DNA from: Escherichia coli | GTDB taxonomy: Bacteria; Pseudomonadota; Gammaproteobacteria; Enterobacterales; Enterobacteriaceae | Assembly: GCF_003334785.1 (NCBI RefSeq) | Contig: NZ_QOWV01000039.1 | Length of the DNA: 6,249 nucleotides | Reading direction: 5' to 3' (one strand) | In this document: piece after piece, positions 619 through 5,892 of the stretch | Numbering within the stretch: position 1 is the stretch's first letter | Layout: each line of letters begins with the position of its first letter | Program-made: the position numbers and the translations under genes | The notes under the pieces: model-generated | Databases searched by the model: none | What the model saw: the letters and a program-made list of their open reading frames with translations, nothing else | What the model was told of the DNA's origin: nothing

Positions 619-700
619 GTCTTACACCTCTTGTAATTACAAATGTCATTACAAGTATCGCACTACAACATGCTTAGGGCAAGTCACGAAGGAAGTCAGA
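619..700 (-). promoter_or_regulatory. relBE promoter region with relO-type operator (perfect 12-bp palindrome TTGTAATTACAA at 631-642, plus partial repeat to 655)
   Basis: Palindrome read directly, immediately upstream of relB; consistent with RelB/RelE autoregulation at an operator overlapping the promoter. Exact -35/-10 positions not resolved by eye. Confidence 0.6.
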
Positions 701-1570: not shown

Positions 1571-3419
1571 AGTTAACATTACAAGATATAAGTAATGGAC
1601 GCACTCCCAATTAGTCTATTTAAATCGCCACGAGTTTAACTGACAACCCATGATCAATTATGAATTGCAACTATTTCTGTAGTCACTTTTGTGGGGACAG
1701 TCCACAAAACTGCCAACTTCCGCTTCTTGCTCTTAGCGGACATTAGCATAGGCTATTTACCATAACGCCTCATTACGCGCACCGCCCAGACTGACTCAGC
1801 GCGTTTCTGGCATATCCCCGGTAAAACAAGTAACAAACCACCCGAAAATGAACACCAGAAACGCGACTTAAGAATCTACCCTATGAATGGATATGCACTC
1901 AACCGAATCGATCTTGGTTTCAATCTTTTTTATCGGGATCAGGCTTCTTTTTAGGTAACTTCGGGGGCTTAACTTGCTGATGACTTTGCGTTCGGCGCGT
2001 AAGCCAGGGATGGTCAGCTTTAGGTTTAACATAGTATTTTGAGCGTAAATCAATACGGGCATTATCCACTCGTTCATGGACACTCTTTTCATCATCCAGT
2101 GGTATAGGCTCCGGGCCATCAACATACTTTTCCCAGCCCAGCGCTTTCCCGTCATACAGAACGTTAATTTCACCGTCAAAGTTCTCGCATACAGTAACAA
2201 CCGAATGCCTAAGTCGATATCCCCGGCCCTCACTGCGTACCTGAAACGCACTGCTTTTGTACTGGAAAGTGAGATTTTTAGACAGAACGCGCTTCGCCTG
2301 TAGGCTGAAGATATAACCCAGTTCCTCTTCAGAATGGTGCACATCAAGATGAGCATTATCAGTAGTACGAGGCGACGTAGCGAACCGGTTGTTATAGGCT
2401 TCAATAAAGGTCGGCAACCATGCATTTGCTGTTTCAATATCACTGATATTCTGAAGCCGCATTTCTTTGACCAGCCTGTCCTGTAGTGTCTGATTGGCGC
2501 GCTCTACCCGCCCTTTTGCCTGCGGGCTGTTGGCATGGATTGGCTCGATGCCCAGTGTCTTTATCGCACGAGTGAACTGGGTCAGCTCACCTTCCCGCTC
2601 TGGGTTATTTACCCTGAATATACTGTGTCTATCAGAGTAGAGAGCGAGCGGTACGCCATGATCATTAAGGTAACCCCGGAGGGTTTCCATGTAAGCCCGG
2701 GTTGTTTCAGCAGGCACAAAACGCAACGCCATCAACGCACTGGTGGCATCATCAATGAAAACGATCAGTGTACATCTGGGGCCTCGATTTTCAAACCAGT
2801 CATGAGGTGAGCCATCAATCTGGATCAGTTCACCGTAAGATGGTCGTCGCATGCGGCGTTGATATATACGGGCAATTTTACGACGGCGTTCACGCCATAA
2901 CCCCTCTTCTATCATCCACTTTCTGAGAGTTTCAACGGATAAAGATAAACCGTGTATCTCGCGCAATTTTTCGCACGCAAACGTAGGTCCAAAATCAGCG
3001 TAACGGCCTTTGAGGAGTGAAATTACTGTTGCTCTGAATTCAGTAGAAAAGGAATTATTAGGACGCTTTCCACGTCGGTGGGAAACCAGACCAGAAGGCC
3101 CTTCATTTCTATACCGTTGCACCAGACGTTTAACCTGCCGAATAGAAATGCCAATGCGTGCCGCAGCTTGTTCCTGAATAATCTGAAGTCGGTGGAGTTC
3201 CTTATGACTCATCGTAACAGTCTCTTTGATCATGAAAAATCCCCCAGAGAATTGTCTGGGGACATTTTAGAATGGTTCAAAGGGGACATTACAGCTTGGT
3301 GTTAACAATAGCCTGCTTCTCCGTGCCTTTCGGCACGTAAGAGGCTAACCTACATGTGTCTAGCATGAAATTGGCCTCAGATTAATGTTAAGCGTCTTGC
3401 AGGACGCGTAATGTTAACT
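1571..3419 (-). mobile_element. ISNCY-family (IS1202-group-like) insertion sequence; boundaries tentative
   Basis: Boundaries are placed at a perfect 12-bp inverted repeat (AGTTAACATTAC at 1571-1582; GTAATGTTAACT at 3408-3419) bracketing the transposase gene. No target-site duplication was found and a 12-mer match could arise by chance in 6 kb. Confidence 0.35.
1920..3233 (-). CDS. ISNCY-family DDE transposase (IS481/IS1202-like), 437 aa
   Basis: N-terminal helix-turn-helix (AARIGISIRQVKRLVQRY); integrase-type catalytic core with D in IQIDGS, D in FIDDATS and E in SPQAKGRVERANQTL; lysine/proline-rich C-terminal tail. An alternative ATG at 3212 (MSHKEL...) is in frame. Confidence 0.9.
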   Translation of the reverse strand: MIKETVTMSHKELHRLQIIQEQAAARIGISIRQVKRLVQRYRNEGPSGLVSHRRGKRPNNSFSTEFRATVISLLKGRYADFGPTFACEKLREIHGLSLSVETLRKWMIEEGLWRERRRKIARIYQRRMRRPSYGELIQIDGSPHDWFENRGPRCTLIVFIDDATSALMALRFVPAETTRAYMETLRGYLNDHGVPLALYSDRHSIFRVNNPEREGELTQFTRAIKTLGIEPIHANSPQAKGRVERANQTLQDRLVKEMRLQNISDIETANAWLPTFIEAYNNRFATSPRTTDNAHLDVHHSEEELGYIFSLQAKRVLSKNLTFQYKSSAFQVRSEGRGYRLRHSVVTVCENFDGEINVLYDGKALGWEKYVDGPEPIPLDDEKSVHERVDNARIDLRSKYYVKPKADHPWLTRRTQSHQQVKPPKLPKKKPDPDKKD

Positions 3420-3567
3420 GGGGCTTTTCTCTATCTGCCGTTGGTGTCCATGCCCGAGGCAGATAGCCTCAAGCACCCGCAGTCATTCTACTTAACTAAG
3501 ATTTCCCCGCAAACCGTTTTTGTCCAGCACAGTAAATATCCAACTAAACCAATGGAGTTCGCTGTAT

Positions 3568-5519: not shown

Positions 5520-5892
5520 TGGGTGGGTTAAGCATAAATGTATTCCTGGTGCTAAATGGCCCGAAATTCAGGCAGAGATGCGCATCTGGAAAAAACGTCG
5601 CGAAGGTGAACGCAAGGAAACCGGAAAATACACGTCTGTTGTTGATCTCGCCCGCGCCAGAGCCAATCAACAGTACACTGAAAATTCAACAGGAAAAATC
5701 AGCCCGGTCATTGCTGCCATTCATCGCGAATACAAGCAGACATGGAAAACACTGGATGACGAACTGGCCTACGCTCTCTGGCCTAGTGATGTGGATGCCG
5801 GAAACATTGACGGCAGCATCCATCGCTGGGCAAAAAAAGAAGTTATCGACAACGACCGCGAAGACTGGAAGCGTGAGGTGTACTGGCAATAG
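5443..5892 (+). CDS. Hypothetical protein of unknown function (149 aa from TTG 5443; alternative starts TTG 5509 with a GGAG site, or ATG 5578)
   Basis: Long open frame with mixed charged composition (…KISPVIAAIHREYKQTWKTLDDELAYALWPSDVDAGNIDGSIHRWAKKEVIDNDREDWKREVYWQ); the 3' end abuts or lies within the IS3-family terminus. Confidence 0.45.
   Translation: MRAFCQSLRACSEGNNPYPELKLHAIGWVKHKCIPGAKWPEIQAEMRIWKKRREGERKETGKYTSVVDLARARANQQYTENSTGKISPVIAAIHREYKQTWKTLDDELAYALWPSDVDAGNIDGSIHRWAKKEVIDNDREDWKREVYWQ

Follow-up and report, generated by a model that had tools for sequence, protein, structure and literature searches.

The locus and its genes

The window, by which we mean the whole stretch of 6,249 nucleotides that was analysed, contains a segment (positions 93-1600) that is 100% identical to the relE-relB / ydfV / flxA region of the Qin prophage of E. 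coli K-12. The annotation of MG1655 (NC_000913.3) can be transferred to it with an offset of 1,645,254. On the minus strand lies relB (379-618), which the ORF list, the identity to K-12 and the annotation all give as the gene for a ribbon-helix-helix antitoxin and repressor of 79 aa. It is followed on the same strand by the relE toxin gene (50-379), an ORF of 109 aa here compared to 95 aa in K-12 (95-379). In the opposite direction run ydfV (b1565), an annotated ORF of 101 codons at 643-948 on the plus strand (present both in the ORF list and in NC_000913.3), and flxA at 1151-1483, also on the plus strand, which was placed by mapping the MG1655 annotation with the same offset. The y-ome lists ydfV among the uncharacterised Qin genes.

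Homology to K-12 stops exactly at the relE stop codon (junction 92/93), where TGA has become TGT, and read-through past this junction adds 14 codons to relE, giving the 109 aa. Positions 1-92 resemble the end of an IS66-family, ISEc23-like element (about 93% identity), and hokD is absent from its K-12 position in the window. Among the complete E. coli genomes listed as best matches, none extends its match over the junction; the matches begin at base 93. An Rfam scan found nothing at the relBE/ydfV locus. Its sole match in the window is the sok antitoxin RNA (RF01794, 104 bits) at 3307-3478 on the minus strand, a marker of a hok/sok type I toxin-antitoxin locus, which is adjoined by a 437-aa ISNCY-family transposase ORF (1920-3233, minus). 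IS600 and a SAM-methyltransferase are annotated farther along in matching genomes.

The relO operator and the relBE promoter

A perfect 12-bp palindrome, TTGTAATTACAA (631-642), lies 13 bp from the start of relB. It is abutted by ATGTCATTACAA at 643-654, in which 10 of the 12 positions match. The initial annotation had described a palindrome and a partial second repeat just upstream of relB and had called them relO. Both elements are where they were said to be, except that the repeat ends at 654 and not at 655. In the orientation of relB, the 24 bp run TTGTAATGACAT and then directly TTGTAATTACAA. This is identical to the published relO (PMC2812701), and at -7 to +17 it falls inside the published extent of -10 to +17, so the name was well chosen. 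The operator (631-654, both strands) is built of four [A/T]TGT[A/C]A hexads, two per strand. On the plus strand these are hexad 1, TTGTAA (631-636), and hexad 2, ATGTCA (643-648); on the minus strand they are TTGTAA at 642-637 and TTGTAA at 654-649. Together they form two 12-bp half-sites that abut with zero spacer.

A perfect 12-bp palindrome alone is statistically unremarkable; the four-hexad architecture is the unusual part. The window has two such palindromes; in first-order Markov simulations the average was 1.6 per window, and 80% of the simulated windows had at least one. A regular-expression search for the 24-bp four-hexad layout found a single instance in the window and not one in 2000 simulations. 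The second perfect palindrome, AGATGCGCATCT at 5576-5587, illustrates how frequently they arise by chance. The relO hexads are also kept in loci from Enterobacter, Klebsiella, E. coli plasmids and Pantoea (74-98% identity). In a seven-locus alignment, relO and the -10 and -35 boxes are nearly invariant in the Enterobacteriaceae copies, and the hexads are still recognisable in Pantoea at 74%.

The relBE promoter is placed on the minus strand by a relaxed promoter scan. Its -10 box is GATACT (654-659), preceded by the TG of an extended -10 and overlapping the first base of relO; its -35 box is TTGCCC (677-682), with a spacer of 17 bp. The transcription start of relB (+1) is at 647, according to the numbering in PMC2812701 and to SMRT-Cappable-seq. 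The supplement of the latter gives a start at NC_000913.3 1645901 on the reverse strand for b1564, b1563 and b1562 (relBE-hokD), which is window position 647 exactly with the offset of 1645254. Substitutions at -10 to -7 (TA, CT) abolish relBE promoter activity (PMC2812701), and these promoter-killing mutations, together with the operator extent in the same paper, fix the -10 box, the -35 box and the start point. The 5' UTR of relB is 647-619. It contains a Shine-Dalgarno region, AAGAGGTG (625-632), that abuts relO and has an anti-Shine-Dalgarno duplex energy of -7.1 kcal/mol. Running from 654 to 631, or -7 to +17 relative to the start, relO covers both the -10 box and the transcription start of relBE.

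In the work of Overgaard, Borch and Gerdes (2009; PMC2812701) relO was dissected by DNase and hydroxyl-radical footprints, scanning mutagenesis, gel shifts and lacZ fusions. The published extent, or protected region, is -10 to +17. Two RelB ribbon-helix-helix dimers bind relO on one face of the helix and RelE is a co-repressor. Both RelB2 and RelB2-RelE bind, the cooperativity depends on RelE, and insertions of 2 or 10 bp between the half-sites abolish repression. The relBE toxin-antitoxin operon regulates itself through this operator, relO at 631-654, which is already well characterised. It serves as a textbook model of conditional cooperativity in the regulation of type II toxin-antitoxin systems.

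The annotated ydfV start is an operator triplet

The ATG of ydfV (643-645) makes up the first three bases of hexad 2 and lies in the centre of the operator, opposite +5 to +3 of the relB mRNA. That it sits inside the operator and has no Shine-Dalgarno had been pointed out in the initial annotation, and both observations hold: anti-Shine-Dalgarno pairing in the 20 nt upstream is 0 kcal/mol for ydfV, compared to -7.1 for relB and -8.7 for flxA. When the published operator substitutions are mapped to the window, relO5 (CA to AC) changes bases 644-645 and relO6 (the central TT) changes bases 642-643. Two groups of substitutions in this half-site, one of which includes relO5, lead to 12- and 36-fold derepression, and relO6 to 190-fold derepression (PMC2812701). 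Repression by RelB-RelE therefore needs every base of the ATG, so that its conservation can be explained by the operator alone. We infer that the triplet is conserved since RelB needs it, and not through its use by ribosomes. Codons 1-14 of ydfV cover relO as well as the -10 box, spacer and -35 box of the relBE promoter. If an experimenter were to knock out the ydfV ATG, relBE would be de-repressed as well.

The ydfV frame in other relBE contexts

A protein-coding ydfV would be expected to keep its reading frame in homologous loci. relBE occurs as a mobile cassette, and comparison with plasmid copies and with a context lacking relBE places its right-hand boundary (on both strands) at about 727-746. 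Homology of the plasmid cassettes (about 800-840 copies, in Enterobacter, Klebsiella, Citrobacter, Salmonella, Pantoea and other hosts) to the window ends at ~745/746 (in a few copies at 756 or 761). In a chromosomal context that lacks relBE, the match to the window begins at ~727. It follows from these two limits that the junction of the cassette lies within the Qin ydfV ORF. Some 14 codons at the start of the ORF are the operator and promoter read on the other strand; about 20 more belong to the upstream flank of the cassette, and the last two thirds are Qin-specific DNA past the junction.

We compared seven relBE contexts, measuring the length of the frame from the same operator start position in each. 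The frame has 101 codons in Qin, 64 in an IncHI2 plasmid and 46 in an IncFIB plasmid. It has 51 codons in Enterobacter sp. 638 and 63 in pECLA, with a frameshift after codon 20 in both. In P. dispersa it is reduced to 24 codons, and in P. agglomerans, where TTG replaces ATG, to 7. In the copies outside Qin the frame from the operator ATG enters unrelated sequence.

A search of 5.8 billion proteins with YdfV returned only 31 matches, all of them Enterobacterales proteins with near-identical stretches in common. Some agree over the first ~33 residues and then diverge into at least 7 unrelated tails; in the others the C-terminal part is shared and the N-termini differ. Judged from such comparisons, this pattern is the signature that would be expected of a promoter region conserved as DNA, not of a conserved protein. 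Within E. coli, about 1150 genomes carry an intact ORF of at least 99% identity. A dN/dS analysis within the species is powerless here, because about 1290 of the 1305 records that match share at least 99% identity through recent common descent.

Plasmid relBE cassettes end in a conserved hairpin, GTCCGCTT-N8-AAGCGGAC. Its position corresponds to 727-750 of the window and to about 948-971 of locus L005, and there are equivalents in L001, L002 and L006. In the IncHI2 copy the hairpin is followed by TTTTT and looks like a plus-strand terminator; the other copies do not have the TTTTT feature. In Qin only the left arm is derived from the cassette. A similar imperfect hairpin in L008, a context without relBE, suggests that the cassette recombined at the hairpin structure.

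Is ydfV translated?

Several intrinsic properties of ydfV are unlike those of a coding sequence. Its GC content hardly varies with codon position (0.49/0.44/0.48); three neighbouring real genes have the usual pattern, with the first codon position high and the second low. Six of its eight arginine codons are rare ones (AGA, AGG, CGA or CGG). Searches of Pfam, NCBIfam and PHROG returned zero family matches for YdfV. An AlphaFold model from the single sequence averages a pLDDT of 52 and stays below 70 at every residue, which is weak evidence. In the predicted fold of the plus-strand RNA, the operator can form an AU-rich hairpin whose loop contains the ATG, and the z-score of -1.06 is not significant. 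RNA structure as the cause of non-translation was dropped on account of that z-score.

Published data on initiation give the same impression. In INRI-seq the ydfV template, a synthetic one that joins an arbitrary 30-nt leader to the start of ydfV, was in the designed pool, and the ydfV peak is 0 in all five replicates (Table S2 of PMC9825163); relB, hokD and flxA are positive. The in vivo Ribo-RET column of the same table also has a ydfV peak of 0. Thus, the published initiation data, as far as they answer the proposal of the initial annotation to look at ribosome occupancy, have no ydfV signal. These negatives are not proof, since INRI-seq confirms about 70% of annotated starts (and so misses ~30%) and Ribo-RET about 18%. 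A combined transcriptome and proteome study found ydfV RNA strongly increased in microaerobiosis, with the protein undetected. Genetic data are also available. A ydfV::Tn10 insertion that suppresses rne lethality has been ascribed to lowered relB expression, and, as summarised in PMC12288877, the phenotype is reversed by overexpression of relB and not of ydfV.

The evidence gathered here makes ydfV probably a spurious, or mis-annotated, ORF. It is most likely a chance reading frame that is not translated.

Transcription around the operator

RNA from the plus strand is another matter. ydfV RNA has been reported in tiling-array and RNA-seq studies and is regulated in several transcriptomes. The ExcludonFinder study (NAR 2025, PMC12288877) found that relBE and ydfV RNA change oppositely under four antibiotics and proposed a divergent excludon. 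The pair is missing from the 16 core divergent excludons in Table 1 of that paper. We found no plus-strand start between relB and dicA in the transcription start table of Kim et al. (2012), and the SMRT-Cappable-seq operon table lists no start for b1565; both datasets cover a limited set of growth conditions, and absence from them is not proof.

A standard promoter scan finds no plus-strand promoter, which is weak evidence since the same scan misses the true relBE promoter too (8/12 matches). A relaxed scan gives only plus-strand candidates with 7-8 of 12 matches and poor -35 boxes; the best has the -10 box TATACT at 507-512, inside relB. A leaderless ydfV start from TGTAAT (632-637) was considered and rejected, as the second position of that hexamer is not the essential A and no -35 box goes with it.

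On the minus strand, weak transcription starts in the Kim et al. (2012) table map to 819, 985 and 1054 of the window. A near-consensus sigma-70 promoter, TTGACA-16-AATAAT (992-1019, minus, 11/12 match), points towards relB, and the low-count start at 985 is 7 nt downstream of it. Minus-strand RNA antisense to the whole ydfV ORF exists. The 5' UTR of relB already overlaps the annotated ydfV CDS by 5 nt; we infer from this that a call of 'overlapping transcription' is almost built into the annotation.

Transcripts from the promoter at 992-1019 would run into relO and the relBE promoter. Upstream of flxA, at 1101-1127 on the plus strand, TAAAGATT-N11-GCCGATAG resembles a sigma-28 (FliA) promoter. 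The consensus for such promoters is TAAAGTTT-N11-GCCGATAA. The site fits a FliA-regulated flxA that would have its own promoter, independent of ydfV.

A proposal for the locus

The account that we favour is as follows. Two RelB dimers, stabilised by RelE, bind both 12-bp half-sites of relO. The bound RelB-RelE covers the -10 box and the +1 of relBE, and initiation is blocked. An excess of RelE breaks the cooperative complex and de-represses the promoter, which is conditional cooperativity. Binding to relO, occlusion of -10 and +1, repression of relBE and control by the RelB:RelE ratio have been shown in the literature for this exact sequence. Any plus-strand RNA polymerase that crosses relO would meet, head-on, the polymerase from the relBE promoter as well as the bound RelB-RelE. 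The level of plus-strand RNA would then be tied to relBE activity as a side effect of collision or a roadblock. In sum, we are largely confident that 631-654 is relO, that it works by conditional-cooperativity repression and that the ydfV ORF opposite to it is not a protein gene.

Other explanations have to be weighed against this one. ydfV could be functional without encoding anything, as a non-coding antisense partner whose transcript starts inside relB, passes through relO and overlaps the 5' end of relB, and which excludes relBE expression, and is excluded by it, through polymerase collision and cutting of the RNA duplex by RNase III; the ORF would then be irrelevant. If so, relBE control would have an extra transcriptional layer. 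The same model was put forward in PMC12288877 to explain why relBE and ydfV RNA move in opposite directions under four antibiotics, and the array and RNA-seq reports, an RpoD genomic-SELEX peak in the relB/ydfV spacer and the candidate TATACT box at 507-512 all agree with it. Nevertheless, the SELEX peak is accounted for by the relBE promoter itself, the plus-strand promoter candidates are weak, neither Kim 2012 (relB-dicA) nor SMRT-Cappable-seq (b1565) has a plus-strand start, and the pair is outside the core set of 16. In addition, the overlap call may stem from annotation alone, given the 5-nt overlap and the minus-strand starts at 819, 985 and 1054, and the plus-strand flank is unconserved past the cassette boundary in other relBE loci. 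We regard such an antisense partner as possible but rather doubtful. A bolder version would make plus-strand transcription through relO, with or without translation of YdfV, a regulated third output of relBE, gated or roadblocked by RelB-RelE at relO; the RNA would interfere in return with relBE initiation, so that operator occupancy would set a bistable choice of direction. This seems improbable to us. A variant of the same idea is that the promoter at 992-1019 (start at 985) might supply Qin with a long-leader relBE transcript that is subject to a RelB roadblock.

Two further possibilities concern the ORF and the palindrome themselves. YdfV might be a real protein of 101 aa, started at the ATG at 643 in a leaderless or Shine-Dalgarno-independent manner and made only when relO is free. 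It would then be a third, operator-gated product of the relBE locus. About 1150 E. coli genomes do carry an intact ATG-initiated ORF of 101 codons, and so does an inducible phage (the phage collection has one record with this region and no added annotation). The A-rich ATTACAA before the ATG can favour initiation on unstructured mRNA, and the operator RNA hairpin is weak (z-score -1.06). Yet the frame is unconserved in other relBE cassettes and the ORF is a chimera across the cassette junction. Shine-Dalgarno pairing is nil, neither the in vitro nor the in vivo data have an initiation peak, and no promoter could be placed for a leaderless start at 643. Homologues occur only in near-identical DNA, YdfV matches no family, and the fold model is of low confidence. 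We find a real YdfV very improbable. As for the palindrome, perfect ones of 12 bp do arise ~1.6 times per window of such composition. Even so, the idea of a chance AT-rich repeat without binding function can practically be dismissed, having been refuted already by footprints, scanning mutagenesis and gel shifts on the exact sequence (PMC2812701); moreover, the four-hexad layout was seen in 0 of 2000 simulations and is kept in diverged loci.

We therefore return to relO opposite an ORF that is no protein gene. The initial annotation had left two options, either that ydfV is not translated or that its expression is tied to operator occupancy. The former is favoured by an unconserved ORF, by the lack of an initiation peak and by the lack of a family, and the latter would survive only at the level of RNA. 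Reported insertions, deletions and mutations of ydfV in suppressor and evolution studies are then better read as mutations of the relBE promoter or operator. Likewise, transcriptome studies that score ydfV as a gene, the excludon proposal included, should be interpreted with the operator overlap in mind.

Comparison with known systems

The overlap of relO and ydfV is already known, and the idea of an operator-gated ydfV has been published at the RNA level (PMC12288877). The closest relative of the present locus is relBE-hokD of K-12 (Overgaard 2008, 2009; Li 2008; Boggild 2012). Sequence, position and context of relO are identical and there are no differences in the operator. The loci differ only downstream: in the window, the relE stop codon and hokD have given way to one end of an IS66-family element.

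Other ribbon-helix-helix operators (Arc, Mnt, CopG and ParD; ccdAB, phd-doc and vapBC) likewise consist of short inverted-repeat half-sites contacted by a beta-ribbon in the major groove. In ribbon-helix-helix and type II antitoxin systems adjacent dimers also bind cooperatively and the operator is also placed on top of the core promoter. Where type II systems have conditional cooperativity, the toxin likewise acts as a co-repressor or de-repressor depending on the toxin:antitoxin ratio. What sets relO apart is its own hexad sequence and the requirement for zero spacer.

The divergent excludon proposed for relBE and ydfV (PMC12288877) involves the same two annotated genes and the same mutual coupling through promoter overlap. 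The data considered here differ from it in pointing to an ORF that is unconserved and untranslated, with a plus-strand start undocumented in two datasets. ydfV can also be compared with the orphan or spurious ORFs of K-12 cryptic prophages, which it resembles in its lack of homologues outside near-identical DNA, of a Shine-Dalgarno and of domains, and in its atypical codons. It differs from other spurious prophage ORFs in that its start is a functionally constrained operator triplet, so that its conservation looks inflated.
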